Assembly (NCBI GenBank): GCA_964570565.1
Contig: CAZMYT010000004.1
Location: 114,256-178,255, forward strand
DNA from: an uncultured Paludibacteraceae bacterium
GTDB taxonomy: Bacteria > Bacteroidota > Bacteroidia > Bacteroidales > Paludibacteraceae
Length of the DNA: 64,000 nt
Reading direction: 5' to 3'
The notes beneath the pieces were generated by a model. That model worked only from the letters and a program-made list of their open reading frames with translations. It was not told the origin of the DNA and did not search any database. Position numbers and translations under genes: made by a program. Each line of letters starts with the position of its first letter. The stretch's first letter is position 1. Shown here in pieces: positions 35,505 through 51,993 of the stretch.

Positions 35505-35600
35505 AAGGTGAAAAGGTTAGTGGTTAATGGGGAACAAGTGAATGTTAAGAAGAGGTTAAAGGTGAAGAGTTAATGGTTAATGGGGAACAGGTTAAGAGGA
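35497..35600 (+). repeat. word-repeat array L1 (GGTGAA/GGTTAA/GGTTAATGGGGAAC words, two ~47-nt degenerate tandem units)
   Basis: Read directly. It has 12 stop triplets and closes all three frames. The DegT stop codon lies in the first word. Confidence 0.85.
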
Positions 35601-35606
35601 AATTAT

Positions 35607-35981
35607 ATGGCAGAAGCATATTCCTATAGAAAGTTGGATGTTTATATCAATGCTAAAGTGTTGGTAAAAACGGTCTATAACCATTTAAGAAAGTTTCCGA
35701 AAGAGGAAAATTATGCCTTATGCGACCAGTTACGTCGTTCTGTTATTTCAGTACCGTCTAACATTGCAGAAGGAATGGGACGTTTTTCATCCAAGGAACA
35801 AATTCATTTTTTAGAAATAGCTTTTGGTTCATTGATGGAAGTACAATGTCAACTTGACATTTCGTGTGATTTGGGATATATTACAATAGAAGAATTTGAA
35901 GTCATTAATAACGATATAAATAATATAGCAAAACAATTATCAGGGTTACGTTCGTTAAGAATACGCGCCCTTAACCTTTAA
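35607..35981 (+). CDS. four-helix-bundle protein (23S rRNA intervening-sequence protein / Avd-like family)
   Basis: YRKLDVY...QLRRSVISVPSNIAEG...EV..QL family pattern. Start at ATG 35607. The stop codon lies inside repeat R1. Confidence 0.8.
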   Translation: MAEAYSYRKLDVYINAKVLVKTVYNHLRKFPKEENYALCDQLRRSVISVPSNIAEGMGRFSSKEQIHFLEIAFGSLMEVQCQLDISCDLGYITIEEFEVINNDINNIAKQLSGLRSLRIRALNL

Positions 35982-36000
35982 CCCTTAACCCATAACCTTT
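35968..36000 (-). repeat. word-repeat arm R1 (CCCTTAACCTTTAACCCTTAACCCATAACCTTT)
   Basis: Its reverse complement matches 36735-36767 at 28/33 positions. Confidence 0.85.
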
Positions 36001-36699: not shown

Positions 36700-36730
36700 A
36701 AATAGCGTTAGATGTGGAATGTTCAAAAAA

Positions 36731-36773
36731 GGTGAAAGGTTATGGGTGAAGGGTTATGGGTTAGAGGTTAACC
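36731..36773 (+). repeat. word-repeat arm L2 (GGTGAAAGGTTATGGGTGAAGGGTTATGGGTTAGAGGTTAACC)
   Basis: Inverted partner of R1 (28/33). Confidence 0.85.
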
Positions 36774-36828
36774 GCATAGTGATGGTCTATTGCTTACTAA
36801 ACATCCTATTCGTCATTCTTGACTTATT

Positions 36829-36900
36829 AATTAACCACTCAACACTCAATAATTTTCTCCATTAACCCGTAACTATTAGCCATTAACCCAATTAAACACC
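36829..36900 (-). repeat. word-repeat arm R2 (CCATTAACCC / TTAACCACTC words)
   Basis: It is the same word family as L1 in reverse-complement orientation. Best match: TTTTCTCCATTAACCC is complementary to TGGTTAATGGGGAACA at 13/16 positions. Confidence 0.7.
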
Positions 36901-36919
36901 AAACACTAAAACAATTAAA

Positions 36920-45981: not shown

Positions 45982-46968
45982 ATGCTTTTATCCATCATCA
46001 TACCCGTTTACAATGTAGCGCCTTACGTTGAGAAATGTTTGGCGAGTTTATTGTGTCAAGGGCTGGCGCCGTCTGACTATGAATTGATTGTGGTCAACGA
46101 TGGTTCCACCGATGAGTCGTACACGATAGCTAAAACATTTTTGGAGCATCAAGCTAGCCTTGCGCCTTTCACCTTTCACCTGATTTCCCAACCCAATGGT
46201 GGATTGAGTGCTGCTCGCAACACAGGTATTCGTCACGCTAAAGGAAAATACATCCAGTTTGTCGATTCCGACGATTATTTAGAACCGCATGTATTGGGTG
46301 CGTTGGTTCAAAAGATGGAGCGAGAACAGTTGGATGTTTTGCGATTCAACTATCAAAATGTGAACGAACAGTACCACGTGTTTGAGCCGTATAAAGCCAT
46401 GAAACCATTTGTCGATTACCGCGATGAGATATGCGATGGTTTAACTTTTCTCACAGAGCGCTTGGGCTACGGCTGTTATGCGGTGCAGTTTATGATACGC
46501 GCTACACTGTTGCAAGCCGAAGTACATCACTTTAAAGCGGGCATCTATTTTGAAGATACCGAATGGACGCCTCGTTTATTGGTGCGTGCACAGCGTGTAA
46601 CTTCCGTAGATACGATGGTGTACAACTATTTGATGCGCACAGGTTCCATTACGCAAAGTGTGGATCCTGAAAAAACTAAAAAGTTGCTGAACGATAAATT
46701 GTTACTTATCGACTCTATGAAACAGCAAGCCCAACAACAGCCCGATAAACGTTGGTTTTTTGGCATGATAGCAGCCACCGTTATTTCGCTGCTTGGTTAT
46801 GTAGGAGCCGACTTTTATCCTCACAGGGCTTTTTATTTCAAAGCGTTACGCGAAAAAATGATTTATCCATTGTCTATGTATCATAGTTCTAAAGTAGCAA
46901 AGCGCAAAATACGGGTTATAAATCTGTCGCCTGCCTTGTTTTGTTGGCTGTTACGCGTTAAACGTTAA
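45982..46968 (+). CDS. glycosyltransferase family 2
   Basis: LSIIIPVYNV...VNDGSTDES...VDSDDY. Its stop codon lies in the first word of the following repeat array. Confidence 0.8.
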   Translation: MLLSIIIPVYNVAPYVEKCLASLLCQGLAPSDYELIVVNDGSTDESYTIAKTFLEHQASLAPFTFHLISQPNGGLSAARNTGIRHAKGKYIQFVDSDDYLEPHVLGALVQKMEREQLDVLRFNYQNVNEQYHVFEPYKAMKPFVDYRDEICDGLTFLTERLGYGCYAVQFMIRATLLQAEVHHFKAGIYFEDTEWTPRLLVRAQRVTSVDTMVYNYLMRTGSITQSVDPEKTKKLLNDKLLLIDSMKQQAQQQPDKRWFFGMIAATVISLLGYVGADFYPHRAFYFKALREKMIYPLSMYHSSKVAKRKIRVINLSPALFCWLLRVKR

Positions 46969-47165
46969 GGGTTAGGGATGAAGGGTTAAACGTTGAACGT
47001 TTAGCGTATAGCGTGAAGAAACTACGTTTAGCGAATAACGAGCAACGTTAAGGGTGAGGGATGAAGGGTTAAAGGTTAAGGGTTTAAAGAACGACATTAA
47101 ACGTTGAACGTTTAGCGTTTAGCGTGCAGTAACTACGAGCAACGATTAACGAGCAACGATAAAAC
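46962..47165 (+). repeat. tandem composite repeat (unit 1 about 83 nt, unit 2 about 121 nt): GGGTTA-type words followed by AACGTT/TAGCG words
   Basis: ACGTTAAGGGT(T/G)AGGGATGAAGGGTTAAA and AAACGTTGAACGTTTAGCGT(A/T)TAGCGTG each occur twice. The perfect palindrome AAACGTT-G-AACGTTT is at 46988-47002 and 47099-47113. Confidence 0.85.
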
Positions 47166-47167
47166 GT

Positions 47168-47194
47168 ACATGAAAGTAGCATATTTATTAGGTT
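47168..47194 (+). repeat. 27-nt direct repeat, left copy (copy of the 5' end of the GT4 gene at 48765)
   Basis: ACATGAAAGTAGCATATTTATTAGGTT is 26/27 identical to 48763-48789. Confidence 0.95.
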
Positions 47195-47202
47195 TACACT
47201 AA
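47170..47202 (+). pseudogene. orphaned 5' fragment of the GT4 gene (MKVAYLLG then out of homology, stop after 10 codons)
   Basis: The first 8 codons are identical in amino-acid sequence to the gene starting at 48765. Confidence 0.55.
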
Positions 47203-47272
47203 AAAAATATTTTTTTAGCAAAATTTTGAACAGATAATTGAATTAATTAGTAGTATCTATTCCTATTTTTAC

Positions 47273-47280
47273 TATTTTTG
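47273..47280 (+). promoter_or_regulatory. candidate -7 box TATTTTTG for abiEi
   Basis: TAnnTTTG match 20 nt upstream of ATG 47301. Confidence 0.4.
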
Positions 47281-47300
47281 TAAACTAATTTGAATATTTT

Positions 47301-47927
47301 ATGAATACACTCTCAGAAATAGGAGCGGTTCCAGTTGATTTTTCGCTACTGAAGGCGATGTATCCTAATCACAAATCGATACATAATAAAATCAGTGAGT
47401 TAGAAAATGCAGGAAAACTTATTCGCTTGAAAAAAGGTTTGTATGTGGTTGCTCCCCAAGAGAGTGGCATGCTGTTATCGTCAGAGTTGATAGCCAATCA
47501 TTTATATGGTCCATCTTATGTTTCCAAAGAGTCTGCTTTACGTTATTATGGCTTAATTCCTGAACAGGTTTATACGCTGTATTCAATGACCACAAAACAT
47601 GCTAGAAGTTTTACAAATGCATTAGGCACATTTGATTATACACACTGTTCGAACGATTATTTTACCATAGGTATTAGGCAAGAATCGAAAGAAGGTTTGT
47701 TTTTTTTAATGGCAACTCCAGAGAAAGCTTTGTGCGACTTAATTATAAACACACCCAACCTAAATCTCCGTTATCAAAAGGAAATCAGAACCTATTTAGA
47801 AGAGGATATACGGTTTGACATGCAGGCATTTTTTAAGATGGATGTGGAAATTCTAAAACAATGTCTGTTGTATGGTAAAAAAAAGCCTATCATTACCAAT
47901 TTAATTCACCTCATCAGAAAATCATGA
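47301..47927 (+). CDS. abiEi: type IV toxin-antitoxin system AbiEi family antitoxin
   Basis: N-terminal wHTH-like ...ISELENAGKLIRLKKGLYV... and ...YVSKESALRYYGLIPE... patterns typical of AbiEi. ATGA overlap with the next gene. Confidence 0.75.
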   Translation: MNTLSEIGAVPVDFSLLKAMYPNHKSIHNKISELENAGKLIRLKKGLYVVAPQESGMLLSSELIANHLYGPSYVSKESALRYYGLIPEQVYTLYSMTTKHARSFTNALGTFDYTHCSNDYFTIGIRQESKEGLFFLMATPEKALCDLIINTPNLNLRYQKEIRTYLEEDIRFDMQAFFKMDVEILKQCLLYGKKKPIITNLIHLIRKS

Positions 47928-48748
47928 ATCCAATGTTTGAACAAATGGTTTCGTCCTATCAAATGGTGACCGATAAGGATAGACGAAATGCCATGTATGA
48001 AGTTATGCAAAAAATAACGTTAGCTGGACTTTATCGAGGAGGTTTTTTCGATAAAGCTGCGTTTTATGGCGGAACTTGCTTACGGATTTTTCATAACATG
48101 GAGCGATTTTCAGAAGATATGGATTTTTCTCTTTTGGTGGCCGATGAGTCGTTTAAAATTGAACACTATTTTCCCGCTATTATCGAAGAGTTTCATTTGG
48201 TAGGCCGAGAGGTGGAGATTACTAAAAAAGATAAAACGCAGTTCAGTAAAGTTGATTCAGCCTTCTTAAAGGACGATACAGATGTGTATGATGTGGTATT
48301 TAAGACTGAGAAAAGTTTGAAAATAAAAATAGAGGTGGATACCCAACCTCCGTTGCAATTTCAAACTGAACATAAATTGTTATTGCGTCCCTATTCGTTT
48401 ATGACACGCTGTTTTACACTACCTAATTTATATGCGGGGAAAATGCACGCATTAGTTTTTAGAACCTGGAAAAATCGTGTAAAAGGCCGTGATTGGTATG
48501 ACTTTGAATGGTACGTTCGCCATGAAGTTCCCTTAAATTTTACTCATCTACAAGAACGTATTAGGGTTTTAAATGGCTTGGAGATGGATGAAAACCAATT
48601 CTTACAACTCCTTAAGGAGCGGTTAGCTTCCACTGATATCAAACAGGTGAAACAGGATGTGGCACCTTTTATAAAAAAACCTAAAGCATTGGAAATTTGG
48701 ACTAATAACTATTTTTTGCAGTTGGCTGACCTGATTAAATTTGAATAA
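47924..48748 (+). CDS. abiEii: AbiEii/AbiGii family nucleotidyltransferase toxin
   Basis: FYGGTCLRIFHNMERFSEDMDFSL (GGT.L...R.SEDxDF) motif and KIEVDT block; 274 aa. Confidence 0.8.
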   Translation: MNPMFEQMVSSYQMVTDKDRRNAMYEVMQKITLAGLYRGGFFDKAAFYGGTCLRIFHNMERFSEDMDFSLLVADESFKIEHYFPAIIEEFHLVGREVEITKKDKTQFSKVDSAFLKDDTDVYDVVFKTEKSLKIKIEVDTQPPLQFQTEHKLLLRPYSFMTRCFTLPNLYAGKMHALVFRTWKNRVKGRDWYDFEWYVRHEVPLNFTHLQERIRVLNGLEMDENQFLQLLKERLASTDIKQVKQDVAPFIKKPKALEIWTNNYFLQLADLIKFE

Positions 48749-48762
48749 ATAAAACTAAACAC

Positions 48763-48789
48763 ACATGAAAGTAGCGTATTTATTAGGTT
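48763..48789 (+). repeat. 27-nt direct repeat, right copy (true 5' end of the GT4 gene)
   Basis: See 47168-47194. Confidence 0.95.
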
Positions 48790-49871
48790 CATTAAATCGG
48801 GGCGGTACCGAAACGTTGGTGTTAGATGTGTTTAAAAAAGCATCGCAAGCACCATTTCAAGTGGTTGGCATCCATCGTAAAAGTGGTGCTTATTTGCCCG
48901 GTTTTAAAGCGACTGGTGAAAAAATGATAGCTTTAGCACCGCGGTTCGTGGGTGATGTGAGTTATTTTGTCAAACTGCGTCGTTTATTGCAACGTGAACG
49001 CGTAGATGTAGTGCATGCGCAACAGTCTTTGGATGCGGTGTATGCTCGTATAGCGTGTGTTGGAACGGATATTAAAGTGGTGCAAACGTTTCATGGATAC
49101 GATTTTAATGCTGGAAAACTGATGCGGCGTTTTATGCGTTTTAGTGCTCATTGGGTGGATGCTAATTTTTTTGTAAGTGCATCACAACGAGATTATTATA
49201 TTAAATCTTATCAATTAAAAGACCACCATAAACAGCACGTAGTTTATAATGGCGTTAATTTCGATAAATTAGACCAACAGGTAGCGCAAGTTGATTTACC
49301 AATTGGTGGCGACCCTGCTTCGCAGGGACTCAAATTGGCGATGGTCGGCAATTTTGTTCGCGGACGCGAACAAAATACCGTTTGTCAATTTCTGAAGTTA
49401 TTAAAAGAGGCTGGTGTGCCGTTCGATTTCTATTTTGTTGGTCGCAAAAGTGAATCAGAGCCTTGGTTGTATGACGATTGTGTTGCCTATTGTCAAGAAC
49501 ATCAGTTGCTCAATTGTGTTCATTTTCTGGGTGGGCGTGGCGATGTTCCAGCCATTTTAAAACAGTTGGATGCTTTTATTTATAGTACCGACCACGATAC
49601 GTTTGGTATAGCTGTCATCGAAGCGATTGCGGCTGGCGTGCCAACCTTTGTAAACGATTGGGAGGTTATGGTAGAAATTACGCAACAAGGTAGATGGGCA
49701 ACTATCTATAAAACCAAGGATGCAGCCGATTTATTCAATAAATTTATTACTTTTGTAGACCATAAAGAACACTATAAACAACAAGCGTGTTCGCATGCGC
49801 AGGAAGTACGTAGTACCTACAGCATTGAACAGCATATGTTGGCGTTGTCAAATTTGTATAATACACTGTAA
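48765..49871 (+). CDS. glycosyltransferase family 4 (GT-B)
   Basis: MKVAYLLGSLNRGGTE start and a C-terminal E..FGIAVIEA.AAG.P block. Confidence 0.8.
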   Translation: MKVAYLLGSLNRGGTETLVLDVFKKASQAPFQVVGIHRKSGAYLPGFKATGEKMIALAPRFVGDVSYFVKLRRLLQRERVDVVHAQQSLDAVYARIACVGTDIKVVQTFHGYDFNAGKLMRRFMRFSAHWVDANFFVSASQRDYYIKSYQLKDHHKQHVVYNGVNFDKLDQQVAQVDLPIGGDPASQGLKLAMVGNFVRGREQNTVCQFLKLLKEAGVPFDFYFVGRKSESEPWLYDDCVAYCQEHQLLNCVHFLGGRGDVPAILKQLDAFIYSTDHDTFGIAVIEAIAAGVPTFVNDWEVMVEITQQGRWATIYKTKDAADLFNKFITFVDHKEHYKQQACSHAQEVRSTYSIEQHMLALSNLYNTL

Positions 49872-49873
49872 AG

Positions 49874-50003
49874 CATTGATTATTGATAATAGATTATTGA
49901 TGTACAAAACACAATGCCATTGATTATTGATAATAGATTATTGATTTATCCATAATCCATTTATCCATAATCTATATATTGATTTATCTATAATTTTAAT
50001 ATT
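49874..50003 (+). repeat. upstream repeat module of four-helix-bundle gene 2 (CATTGATTATTGATAATAGATTATTGAT x2, then ATCCATAATC words)
   Basis: A 44-nt unit at 49874 is repeated from 49918. The tail TTATCCATAATCCATTTATCCATAATCTATATAT recurs downstream of the gene. Confidence 0.85.
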
Positions 50004-50375
50004 TTGAATGACAAACAAATAGCGTTTCGTGACAAGTGTATGGCGTTTGCTGTGTGTGTGGTGAAGTTGCGTAGTTATTTGTGTGAGCAAAAGCATGAAC
50101 ACGATATATCTCGACAATTATTGCGGAGTGGAACAGCCATTGGAGCTTTACAACGAGAGGCTTATCATGCTGAAAGTGATGCCGATTTAGTTCATAAATT
50201 AGCGATAGCTCAAAAAGAGTGTAACGAATCTCTGTATTGGATTGAATTACTGTATCTTACAAATTATATAACCAAAGCAGAATCGGAAAGTTTATCGAAT
50301 GATGCATTAGAGCTCTTAAAAATGCTTACAGCCAGTATTCAAACCCTGAAAAAACGTATAAAACAAAAACAATAA
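50004..50375 (+). CDS. four-helix-bundle protein (23S rRNA IVS protein / Avd-like family), probable TTG start
   Basis: QLLRSGTAIGALQREAYHAES..D..HKLAIAQKECNESLYWIELL family pattern. There is no in-frame ATG before Met12. Confidence 0.75.
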   Translation: MNDKQIAFRDKCMAFAVCVVKLRSYLCEQKHEHDISRQLLRSGTAIGALQREAYHAESDADLVHKLAIAQKECNESLYWIELLYLTNYITKAESESLSNDALELLKMLTASIQTLKKRIKQKQ

Positions 50376-50580
50376 TATTGATTATTGATAATAGATTATC
50401 GATGTACAAAACACAAAAACAATATTGATTATTGATAATAGATTATCGATGTACAAAACACAATAACAACATTGATTATTGATTTATCTATAATCCATTC
50501 ATCCATAATCTATATATCAATTCATCCATAATCAATTATCTATATATCCATAATCCATTTTTCTATATTTTTAATTAATT
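50375..50580 (+). repeat. downstream repeat module of four-helix-bundle gene 2 (two 47-nt tandem units, a partial unit, then ATCCATAATC tail)
   Basis: ATATTGATTATTGATAATAGATTATCGATGTACAAAACACAA occurs at 50375 and 50422. The partial unit and tail are a direct repeat of the upstream module. Confidence 0.85.
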
Positions 50581-51993
50581 TTGCTTAATTACTTTCCTAA
50601 ATATATCGCCAATAAAGCAGTAACCTTTTATGTTGTTGCTCTTATATTGGTGTCTGTATTGTTCTTTAATAATGCCATGTCTTTCCTATGGATGGTATTT
50701 GGCTTGGTAGAGGTTGTTGCCTTTTTCTATGTGAGTAATCGATTAACTCGTAATTGGATTAATTATTCGCCTCGCTTATTTGAGAAAAAGGTATTTTTTA
50801 CAGCCTTGATTATTCGTGTTGTGTATGTGTTGTTTTCTTATCTATTTTACAATCTGATGACTGGACAACCTTTTGAATATGGTACAGCTGATGCTATAGG
50901 GTATCATCAATCTGCTTTATGGGTGCGCGAGTTGTTATTGAGTGGTAAAATACAAACTTATTTTAGTTATATTGCAGGTCGTTATTCCGACATGGGATAT
51001 CCCTTTAGTTTGGGAGTACAATATGTTCTCACCTTTGGTAGTATTTTAGTGGCTCGTTTGGTCAAAGCAGCCTTAAGTGCTTATATGTGCTTATTAATAT
51101 ACCGCTTGGCAAAACGTAATTTTGGTGAGTATGTGGGGCGTATGGCTGCGGTGTTTACCCTAGTTATGCCCCATTTTATTTACTATTGTGGGTTGCATTT
51201 AAAAGAAACAGAGATGGTGTTTTTATCTGTTTGGTTTTTGGAACGCATAGATTTTGTGATACGTACCAAACACCTCTCGTTAAAAGTATTGATATTACCC
51301 GTGTTATTGTTAGTCTCTTTATTCTTTTTTCGTACCGTATTGGGTGTGACGGCTATTTTTGCTGTGGGTACGGCGGTCTTATTTTCTGAAGCAAATGTGT
51401 TGAATAGGCATAAACGTATGGTCTTATTATTGTGGGGGACTTCCGCTGTGTTAGTGTTTTTAGGGGGCAGTATTTCTACAGAAATAGAAGAGGTGTGGCA
51501 AAAAAGTGGATCTGAAGAACAATCGAAAAATATGGAGTGGCGTTCACAAAGGGAAGGTGGTAATCAGTTTGCTAAATATGCGGGTGCTGCCGTCTTTGCT
51601 CCGTTGATTTTTACTATACCGTTCCCCACCATGGTGCATGTGGATTATCAAGAAAATCAAATGATGGTGAATGGTAATAATTATGTGAAGAATATTTTAT
51701 CGTTTTTTGTTATTTTGGCATTTTACCTAATTATAAAACGCAAATTATGGCGTAAACATACCTTATTAATCGCTTACATTTTGACTTATCTAGGAATTTT
51801 GGCGCTGAGTCATTTCGCACAGTCTGAACGTTTTCATTTACCCGCCTTACCTGTTGCTTTAATTTTTGCCGCCTATGGTATTTCGGAGATGACAAATCAA
51901 TATAAAAAGCTTTTTGATTATTGGACCGTATTTATTTTGGTTGTTATCATTGGTTGGTGTTGGTTTAAATTAGCAGGTAGAGGGTTGGTTTAA
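50581..51993 (+). CDS. multi-pass membrane protein, possible GT-C-type glycosyltransferase or polymerase (TTG start in the ORF track)
   Basis: At least 10 hydrophobic segments and one central soluble loop (WQKSGSEEQSKNMEWRSQREGG). No firm motif. Confidence 0.4.
   Translation: MLNYFPKYIANKAVTFYVVALILVSVLFFNNAMSFLWMVFGLVEVVAFFYVSNRLTRNWINYSPRLFEKKVFFTALIIRVVYVLFSYLFYNLMTGQPFEYGTADAIGYHQSALWVRELLLSGKIQTYFSYIAGRYSDMGYPFSLGVQYVLTFGSILVARLVKAALSAYMCLLIYRLAKRNFGEYVGRMAAVFTLVMPHFIYYCGLHLKETEMVFLSVWFLERIDFVIRTKHLSLKVLILPVLLLVSLFFFRTVLGVTAIFAVGTAVLFSEANVLNRHKRMVLLLWGTSAVLVFLGGSISTEIEEVWQKSGSEEQSKNMEWRSQREGGNQFAKYAGAAVFAPLIFTIPFPTMVHVDYQENQMMVNGNNYVKNILSFFVILAFYLIIKRKLWRKHTLLIAYILTYLGILALSHFAQSERFHLPALPVALIFAAYGISEMTNQYKKLFDYWTVFILVVIIGWCWFKLAGRGLV

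Follow-up and report, generated by a model that had tools for sequence, protein, structure and literature searches.

A cassette-like unit built around a gene for a four-helix-bundle protein was found in a surface-polysaccharide operon of an uncultured Paludibacteraceae bacterium. The stretch analysed, referred to below as the window, comprises 64,000 nt of contig CAZMYT010000004.1 (assembly GCA_964570565.1), and the locus in question is the gap between a GT4 glycosyltransferase gene and a gene for a polytopic membrane protein. The cassette is a TIGR02436/PF05635 gene bracketed by arrays of short period, usually 7 nt, and is one of a widespread class. With a probability of roughly 55%, we regard the locus as a mobile cassette in an mRNA operon that resembles the intervening sequences (IVSs) of 23S rRNA; its arms would pair in the transcript and, by analogy with these IVSs, would probably be cut by RNase III. 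The target locus is a derived, copy-number-variable form of the cassette, a "double hairpin", in which each flank consists of a G-type array and then a C-type array and is foldable on itself or across the gene.

The components of the target locus are listed below; repeat periods were determined with Tandem Repeats Finder (TRF).

49875..49901, + strand: G-type heptamer array G1 (words ATTGATT, ATTGATA, ATAGATT and ATTGAT); TRF period 7, 3.9 copies.
49902..49918, + strand: spacer S (GTACAAAACACAATGCC), 17 nt; together with G1 it makes up a 44-nt unit of variable copy number.
49919..49945, + strand: G-type heptamer array G2, identical to G1; TRF period 7, 4.0 copies.
49946..49994, + strand: C-type array C1 (ATCCATA/ATCTATA words); TRF periods 7, 15 and 23; complementary to G1/G2, giving the upstream hairpin with G2.
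50004..50375, + strand: four-helix-bundle gene (TIGR02436/PF05635); 123 aa, TTG start, intact, under purifying selection.
50356..50483, + strand: tandem 47-nt unit, 2.7 copies; TRF score 212, 92% matches; contains the G-type arrays G3 (50377-50403), G4 (50424-50450) and G5 (50471-50483).
50484..50560, + strand: C-type array C2 (ATCCATAATC-type tail); TRF periods 15 and 22; complementary to G3-G5 locally and to G1/G2 across the gene.

An earlier, sequence-only reading of this DNA had described a 709-nt gap containing only a 123-aa four-helix-bundle gene with a probable TTG start, and this description is confirmed. In the gap (49872-50580), a single open reading frame (ORF) both reaches 60 aa and matches a family, namely 50004-50375; its product scores above the cut-offs of both TIGR02436 (86.9 bits, cut-off 24) and PF05635 (75.8 bits, cut-off 33.8). 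All of the residues that are invariant in the family (Q38, R41, S42, E52, H64, I68 and E75) are present. Judging by sequence similarity, the closest solved relative of the protein is PDB 2RLD of Bacteroides thetaiotaomicron (E = 8.6e-28, residues 6-117). Homologues align from residue 1, and related strains have GTG or ATG at the position of the TTG; alignment thus indicates that the TTG start is real. The pN/pS ratio (nonsynonymous to synonymous polymorphism) of the gene is 0.05-0.13 in comparison with the related loci L100, L134 and L144, which argues that the protein is made and conserved. PADLOC, a search for defence systems, gave no match. A phage vector is not indicated either, as just three relatives were found among 2.9 million viral contigs. 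In L144 (2950-6600, GCA_020636695.1), the GT4 and membrane-protein genes are split into several short ORFs and the four-helix-bundle gene is intact; the split ORFs could be due either to gene decay or to frameshift errors of the assembly.

The composite word repeats noticed on both sides of the gene were recovered by TRF, which detects arrays of period 7 with about 4 copies each at 49875, 49919, 49948, 50376 and 50423. In direct alignment, the upstream and downstream flanks match over about 110 nt at about 90% identity, the non-array spacer included, and both stop just short of a TTG start codon. The downstream 47-nt array begins within the last 21 nt of the ORF. Each of its units consists of about 20 nt resembling the ORF 3' end and a G-type array, the last of which (G5) is short; spacer S is homologous to these downstream spacers. 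Since every repeat unit carries a copy of the ORF 3' end, duplication and unequal exchange have occurred here. The C1 array forms inverted pairs with the G-arrays that are 92% complementary. As each flank is a quasi-palindrome, made up of a G-array and then the complement of that array, the two flanks repeat each other in inverted as well as in direct orientation. The sequence-only reading had called them direct and not inverted: the first half of this statement stands, and the second does not. In the minimum free energy fold of 49860-50590 (731 nt), G1/G2 of the upstream flank are predicted to pair with C2, with the gene looped out. Complementary G- and C-type arrays lie on both sides, and the model would pair them around the ORF.

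The vocabulary of the flanks is local. The word GATTATTGAT (at most one mismatch) occurs 37 times in the window, compared with 11.5 ± 3.3 times in shuffled sequence (0 of 100 shuffles reach 37), and 16 of the 37 matches fall in 49878-50555, the only place in the 64-kb window where the word clusters. When the whole window was scanned for strong periodicity in 42-nt windows, only period 7 was detected, and only at 36730, 46957-47090 and 49918. A dispersed repeat of the repetitive extragenic palindrome (REP) kind was considered and rejected on the basis of a metagenome scan, which did not return the source contig. Multiple copies of the 20-nt core of the unit were found there only in L100 and L134, related strains that carry them at this very locus; each of the 46 other hits is a single match.

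The family survey covered one genome per GTDB species and was made with an alignment of 26 relatives; the 80 best loci were kept, and 79 of them were usable. They belong to Bacteroidota, Cyanobacteria, Chlorobiota, Verrucomicrobiota, Planctomycetota, Leptospirales, Gammaproteobacteria and other groups. A tandem array is located within 250 nt of the gene in 77 of the 79 loci, and in 63 there are arrays on both sides. Arrays cover 17% of the flanking bases versus 2% elsewhere, and their dominant period is 7 (71 arrays upstream, 74 downstream). Heptamer arrays were found in 74% of the gene-adjacent gaps versus 12% of the other gaps of the same loci (odds ratio 20, p = 2e-40), and 48% of the four-helix-bundle genes are flanked on both sides versus 1.3% of other ORFs of 90-160 aa. 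The upstream and downstream words are reverse complements of each other (at most one mismatch) in 51 of 55 loci, compared with 20% between unrelated loci. The idea of a cassette family in which the words change fast and the syntax is kept is well supported by these counts, to which the relatives of a second four-helix-bundle gene of the window (gene 1, see below) conform. Four-helix-bundle genes devoid of array flanks, which would have been expected to predominate if this idea were wrong, are the rare case.

The syntax of the family can be described as follows. The 5' array is G-rich and C-poor, the 3' array is its reverse complement, and the cassette lies between operon genes in the same orientation; in 64 of 79 loci, the genes on either side both point the same way as the cassette gene, and the gaps measure about 40 nt. 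The arrays have a length of about 31 nt, or about 4.5 copies, and occupy the DNA between the stop codon of the neighbour and the start of the gene and between the stop of the gene and the next start, the median distance being 2 nt between array and start codon and -1 nt between array and stop codon. G exceeds C in the upstream word in 50 of 59 loci, and C exceeds G in the downstream word in 48 of 65; the reverse polarity alone was never seen among the surveyed loci. A stop codon is contained in 53 of 59 upstream words versus about 55% expected. The commonest layout is G-arm, gene, C-arm. The double-hairpin layout of the target recurs in L020 (Anaerolineales) and L039 (Bacteroidales), where both gaps are occupied from stop codon to next start codon by a G-array and a C-array. 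The gene 1 relatives form a second subfamily, which has the same layout in polysaccharide clusters and changes in copy number between strains. In one lineage of cassettes (L156-L165, about 1960-2410), the words are 8 nt long, with GGATTAGT in 4-6 copies upstream and CCTCTAAC in 4-5 copies downstream, the copy number differing between samples; a period of exactly 7 is thus not obligatory. In a metagenome-assembled genome (MAG) of Leptonemataceae (L078, 7747-8600), the arrays extend over about 250 nt on each side of the four-helix-bundle gene, the upstream one consisting of 38.6 copies of AATTGAG and the downstream one of 35.9 copies of ATAATTG. The same architecture was found in restriction-modification and housekeeping operons of other phyla. 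In L023, L039, L058, L069 and L086, the cassettes, which belong to the target's subfamily, lie inside restriction-modification operons, near HsdS-like, type III res/mod and methyltransferase genes. Cassettes in such operons imply that hypervariable loci in general are favoured, and not glycan clusters alone.

The cassette also behaves as a discrete unit. The word is shared by 90% of the protein pairs that are at least 80% identical and by 19% of the pairs at 55-65% identity. Between genomes with unrelated surroundings, the nucleotide homology comprises the arrays and the gene only, extending from -34 to +16/+23 in the pair L087/L089 and from -34 to +15 in the pair L040/L067. In L021/L042 and L077/L082, it stops within or short of the arrays, and L030/L086 is similar. 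The confinement of homology to the arrays and the gene indicates that the gene and its arms are inherited and transferred together, and, as far as can be judged from such comparisons, homology that ends at the outer array edges marks a discrete, horizontally moving unit.

When related strains are compared at the target locus, the gene is kept in every strain with readable sequence, and the repeat copy number alone varies. There are two upstream G-arrays in the window and seven in L001, the 44-nt unit being represented by one full copy and six copies, respectively; in L134, the unit core is matched at least five times upstream. The length of the C2 tail exceeds that in the window by 15 nt in L001 and by 53 nt in L134. 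The sequence-only reading had looked to presence/absence polymorphism at this gap and to deletion of the gene by recombination between the flanks. Such a deletion is plausible; it was not observed, and no strain with readable sequence lacks the gene. In L143, a protein of the 90%-identity cluster of the membrane protein is encoded directly behind a Caps_synth glycosyltransferase, with no four-helix-bundle gene and no array, which shows mosaicism and not a clean empty site. In the ten Logan contigs shown (L004-L013, with a GT4 95% identical), the assembly ends 53 nt past the GT4 stop codon, inside an array of GATTATT type.

Arrays of the same kind are located elsewhere in the window, around gene 1 and at a site without any gene.

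35505..35606, + strand: G-type arrays (GGTTAAN/GGTGAAN words; TRF) upstream of gene 1; same syntax, other vocabulary.
35607..35981, + strand: four-helix-bundle gene 1; TIGR02436 112 bits; the predicted fold pairs both arms around the ORF.
35966..35997, + strand: C-type array (CCCTTAA, 4.3 copies; TRF), the complement of the upstream GGTTAAG words.
36731..36900, + strand: solo heptamer hairpin with no gene inside, between WbqC and GT2 genes; G-arm 36731-36772, loop, C-arm 36839-36900 (TRF).

The gene 1 protein is 23% identical to the target protein. The longest-ORF call for gene 1 (133 aa) starts at 35580, which lies within the upstream heptamer array; from comparison with homologues and between strains, the likely true start is the ATG at 35607 (124 aa). 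The N-termini of several database homologues of 126-147 aa may be extended by array sequence in the same way. The region upstream of gene 1 measures 178 nt in L151/L152 versus 75 nt. No empty/filled polymorphism of gene 1 was found; L151 and L152 both retain it.

The solo hairpin at 36731-36900 folds with z = -2.73. The orthologous WbqC-GT2 gap contains three different heptamer hairpins in three strains (window 36700-36919, L151 6378-6511 and L150 801-993), which differ in arm words, arm lengths and loop, the identity of the flanking genes being about 90% or higher. No remnant of a four-helix-bundle gene could be recognised in the loops, and an origin of the solo hairpins as deletion scars was rejected. 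At 46957-48764 of the window, about 210 nt of G-type arrays, built from GTTAAGG, GGTTAAA and CGTTTAG words and duplicated internally, precede an AbiEi/AbiEii toxin-antitoxin pair, after which comes a short C-type stretch. This 1.8-kb segment of arrays and AbiE (46964-48756) has as its counterpart in L004 and other related strains a mere 24 nt of C-type words. The AbiEi/AbiEii defence module appears to be cargo of the same array syntax.

The comparison with 23S rRNA IVSs that carry an S23p/PF05635 ORF (Coxiella burnetii, Leptospira) underlies the preferred interpretation. In C. burnetii, the S23p ORF is preceded by 3-4 tandem GACAGAT heptamers, the number of which varies between strains, and the IVS termini form a 28-bp stem that is cut by RNase III in vitro, the RNA thus excised being labile (PMC4990558). 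The cassettes described here share with these IVSs the protein family, strain-variable heptamers that reach the start codon, and complementary termini; in the IVSs, these termini form a stem of about 28-32 bp round the ORF, and a similar stem is predicted here. Unlike the IVSs, the target element would be carried in the mRNA of a polysaccharide operon, between the GT4 and membrane-protein genes, and each of its flanks holds both arm types. The proposed mechanism is as follows. In the polycistronic transcript, the arms would pair into an imperfect duplex of about 30 bp, which RNase III would cut, as it does the Coxiella IVS in vitro. The cleavage would part the flanking cistrons unharmed, and the insertion would be tolerated without polar damage; at the same time, cleavage would release or limit the four-helix-bundle mRNA and in this way set its level. 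Because the period of 7 is not a multiple of 3, a start or stop codon within the word is presented in all three frames, and such arrays could insulate translation. At the DNA level, slippage in the arrays would produce the copy-number variation, and arrays of about 30 nt might serve as portable homology for exchange between loci; slippage, template switching and homologous exchange via this homology are the alternatives at that level.

Other known systems resemble the cassettes in part. Heptamer direct repeats (TAACTGA) have been described in Beggiatoaceae, cyanobacteria and Bacteroidetes (MacGregor 2015, PMC4679880), and heptamer repeats near start codons are known in Nostoc. These repeats, including the short tandemly repeated repetitive (STRR) sequences, are likewise intergenic 7-nt tandem units, often ending at a start codon, with stops in three frames, with 7-nt indels between strains and with assemblies that break there. 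Unlike the arrays described here, which are locus-specific and paired with a complement across or beside the gene, they are described as one high-copy, genome-wide word that is direct and has no partner. The word here is inherited with the four-helix-bundle gene, a family of which PMC4679880 makes no mention. The "global regulator binding sites" of Geobacter metallireducens (PMC2700814), compared here by description, are also pairs on opposite strands at variable distance, composed of 3-5 tandem units of 7-9 nt and located inside operons (e.g., proB-proA); in contrast to the present arrays, they are interpreted as IHF/HU sites, and no link to four-helix-bundle genes is given in the text or supplements. 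Integron cassettes with attC sites share a small promoterless ORF co-oriented with the array or operon, and imperfect palindromes that keep their structure while the sequence diverges. They differ from the present locus, where there is no integrase or attI, the arms are on both sides of the ORF and not on one, the heptamers are periodic, and the cargo is essentially of one family. Intercistronic position, foldability, repetition and location inside operons are features shared with REPs and bacterial interspersed mosaic elements (BIMEs). REPs are units of 20-40 bp with one consensus and hundreds of copies; they lack both the arrangement in tandem heptamers and the association with a cargo gene. 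Avd of diversity-generating retroelements (DGRs) has a homologous four-helix-bundle fold, and gene 1 matches it below the threshold (36.9 bits, cut-off 80); the 123-aa target protein, on the other hand, has no match to the Avd models, and the Pfam lists for about 21 kb around the locus contain no reverse transcriptase. No description of four-helix-bundle genes outside rRNA bracketed by complementary heptamer arrays was found in the full-text collection searched, which leaves most subscription journals and database family notes outside its coverage.

Several results weigh against the IVS-like interpretation. RNase III cleavage in this organism is assumed purely by analogy with the IVSs of Coxiella and of other rRNA genes, for which such excision has been shown. 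The arms at this locus are AT-rich and weak, and the thermodynamic support is modest for that reason: the fold of the whole 731-nt region is not better than that of shuffled sequences (z = -0.97). The sequence-only reading had each flank folding on itself, which is borne out for the downstream flank, where the effect is significant (z = -3.46), and fails for the upstream one (z = -0.98, no better than shuffles). There is no bias for G·U pairs on the sense strand, the sense duplex being more stable in 45 loci versus the antisense one in 34 (p = 0.37), so the pairing could have its role at the level of DNA and not of RNA. The ORF at this locus is subject to purifying selection, in contrast to that of Coxiella, which is decaying and apparently not translated; the conservation seen here implies that the protein must do something beyond what the model provides for. 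No empty allele at exactly this gap was found among the related strains, where assemblies of the P0155 type break at the repeat. Neither a recombinase nor an insertion mechanism for the cassette was found in the Pfam lists for about 21 kb. The arrays are strongly, but not exclusively, tied to four-helix-bundle genes: 12% of the gaps away from these genes hold arrays, and solo hairpins are present in other surveyed loci too.

Some of these points would be accounted for if the arrays were generic intergenic repeats of the STRR/TAACTGA type, acting on the translation initiation or mRNA stability of the next gene (e.g., by binding S1 or Csp), with the four-helix-bundle gene as a passenger in the same hypervariable loci. 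We consider this possible but doubtful. The literature records heptamers directly next to start codons for Beggiatoaceae, cyanobacteria and Bacteroidetes, Paludibacter among them (PMC4679880), and for Nostoc, and both target flanks end in this way. Arrays in 12% of the non-adjacent gaps of the 79 loci, the G+C hairpins that make up the whole gaps on both sides of the gene in L020 and L039, and the solo hairpins elsewhere in the loci fit as well. A passenger gene, however, does not explain the 20-fold enrichment of arrays beside four-helix-bundle genes or the two-sided flanking (48% vs 1.3%). Moreover, the complementarity of the arms spans the gene, the words track the protein phylogeny across host phyla, the homology between unrelated genomes stops at the arrays, and the word is confined to this locus in the window and in the metagenome scan instead of being dispersed. 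A role at the DNA level, with the hairpin as a recombination site or portable homology, is an unlikely explanation. In this scenario, the layout would result from a Campbell-type single crossover between a circle of gene plus hairpin and a solo hairpin, and the direct copies could excise the gene. The direct flank repeats with their non-array spacer, the copy of the ORF 3' end in the repeat unit as an indication of duplication and unequal exchange, the solo hairpins at equivalent operon positions (36731-36900 and other loci), the recurrence of the hairpin-gene-hairpin layout in L020 and L039, the lack of strand bias in duplex stability and the coincidence of array boundaries with the presence/absence breakpoints of the AbiE module are all in keeping with it. 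Neither an empty allele nor a circular form was seen, all related strains keep the gene, and the Pfam list for about 21 kb around the locus contains no integrase or transposase. The commonest layout, G-arm, gene, C-arm, has no direct repeats to recombine, and symmetrical recombination would not lead one to expect so strict a polarity of the arms with respect to the gene.

It is quite unlikely that the arrays are protein-binding sites, either for the encoded four-helix-bundle pentamer, which would regulate itself or package its own RNA or DNA, or for a nucleoid protein such as IHF/HU. The word and the protein do co-vary, which is equally explained by co-inheritance, and the core of the protein is highly conserved (50-60% identity, invariant motifs) while the words are wholly different, two very different ones occurring in one genome. 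In favour of binding, the Avd homologue is known from the DGR literature to bind nucleic acid, and gene 1 weakly matches Avd; the Nostoc study postulates a heptamer-binding partner, and the paired inverted tandem repeats of G. metallireducens, including a fivefold heptanucleotide, were read as regulator sites (PMC2700814). Phase variation, in which the number of units would switch or tune the downstream membrane protein and thereby alter the surface polysaccharide, is very improbable. Close strains do differ (2-7 upstream G-arrays, a downstream tail longer by 15 or 53 nt), and the locus is a surface-polysaccharide cluster. The variable units, however, are intergenic and unable to shift a reading frame. 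A scan of the flanks for sigma-70 promoters and terminators gave nothing above chance, there is no match to the Bacteroidetes-type TTTG…TAnnTTTG promoter, and the architecture is the same in the restriction-modification and housekeeping operons of other phyla.

A broader version of the IVS-like interpretation is offered as a speculation that we hold to be rather doubtful. The four-helix-bundle genes with complementary heptamer arms would form a single ancient class of self-contained intervening elements, residing in rRNA helices and operon spacers of many phyla. The Avd-like pentamer would be the element's own factor, recognising the cognate word in RNA or single-stranded DNA and promoting processing, protection or copying, possibly via an RNA intermediate; the solo hairpins and the STRR/TAACTGA repeats would be footprints or landing pads. 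To our knowledge, the function of intergenic heptamer repeats has been open since 1990. The present data suggest a possible link between the 23S rRNA IVSs with an S23p ORF, the multi-copy "four helix bundle protein" genes of Bacteroidota, cyanobacterial and other genomes, and the intergenic heptamer repeats (STRR, TAACTGA and the Geobacter paired sites). Should all three belong to a single class of element, direct tests of the repeats as well as of the protein would become possible. In practical terms, the arrays break short-read (k-mer) assemblies inside polysaccharide loci, make gene callers extend ORFs (gene 1 with 133 aa instead of 124 aa is an example) and, in hypervariable loci for surface glycans and defence, show where the boundaries of recombination lie.

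The region from 34 to 60 kb of the window is a co-directional surface-polysaccharide cluster, in which the neighbours of the cassette are the following genes.

48765..49871, + strand: GT4 glycosyltransferase gene (Pfam Glyco_transf_4 and Glycos_transf_1), the upstream neighbour in the operon, with 3 nt between its stop codon and the first array.
50581..51993, + strand: polytopic membrane protein gene (weak PMT_2 match), the downstream operon neighbour.

In the Pfam lists over about 21 kb around the locus, polysaccharide-synthesis genes and AbiE were found, with no integrase, transposase, integron integrase or reverse transcriptase among them, and no Rfam family, rRNA included, was found in the window. 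An assembly artefact was rejected as an explanation, as the structure was found again in assemblies of independent origin (JGI, ENA, NCBI and Logan). In a MAG of Candidatus Colicola equi (L085, 4709-6229), a GT4 homologue stands directly before a four-helix-bundle gene with heptamer arrays, whose product is 48% identical to the target protein. On the basis of this locus, the adjacency of GT4 and cassette may be old, or the two may have been transferred together.

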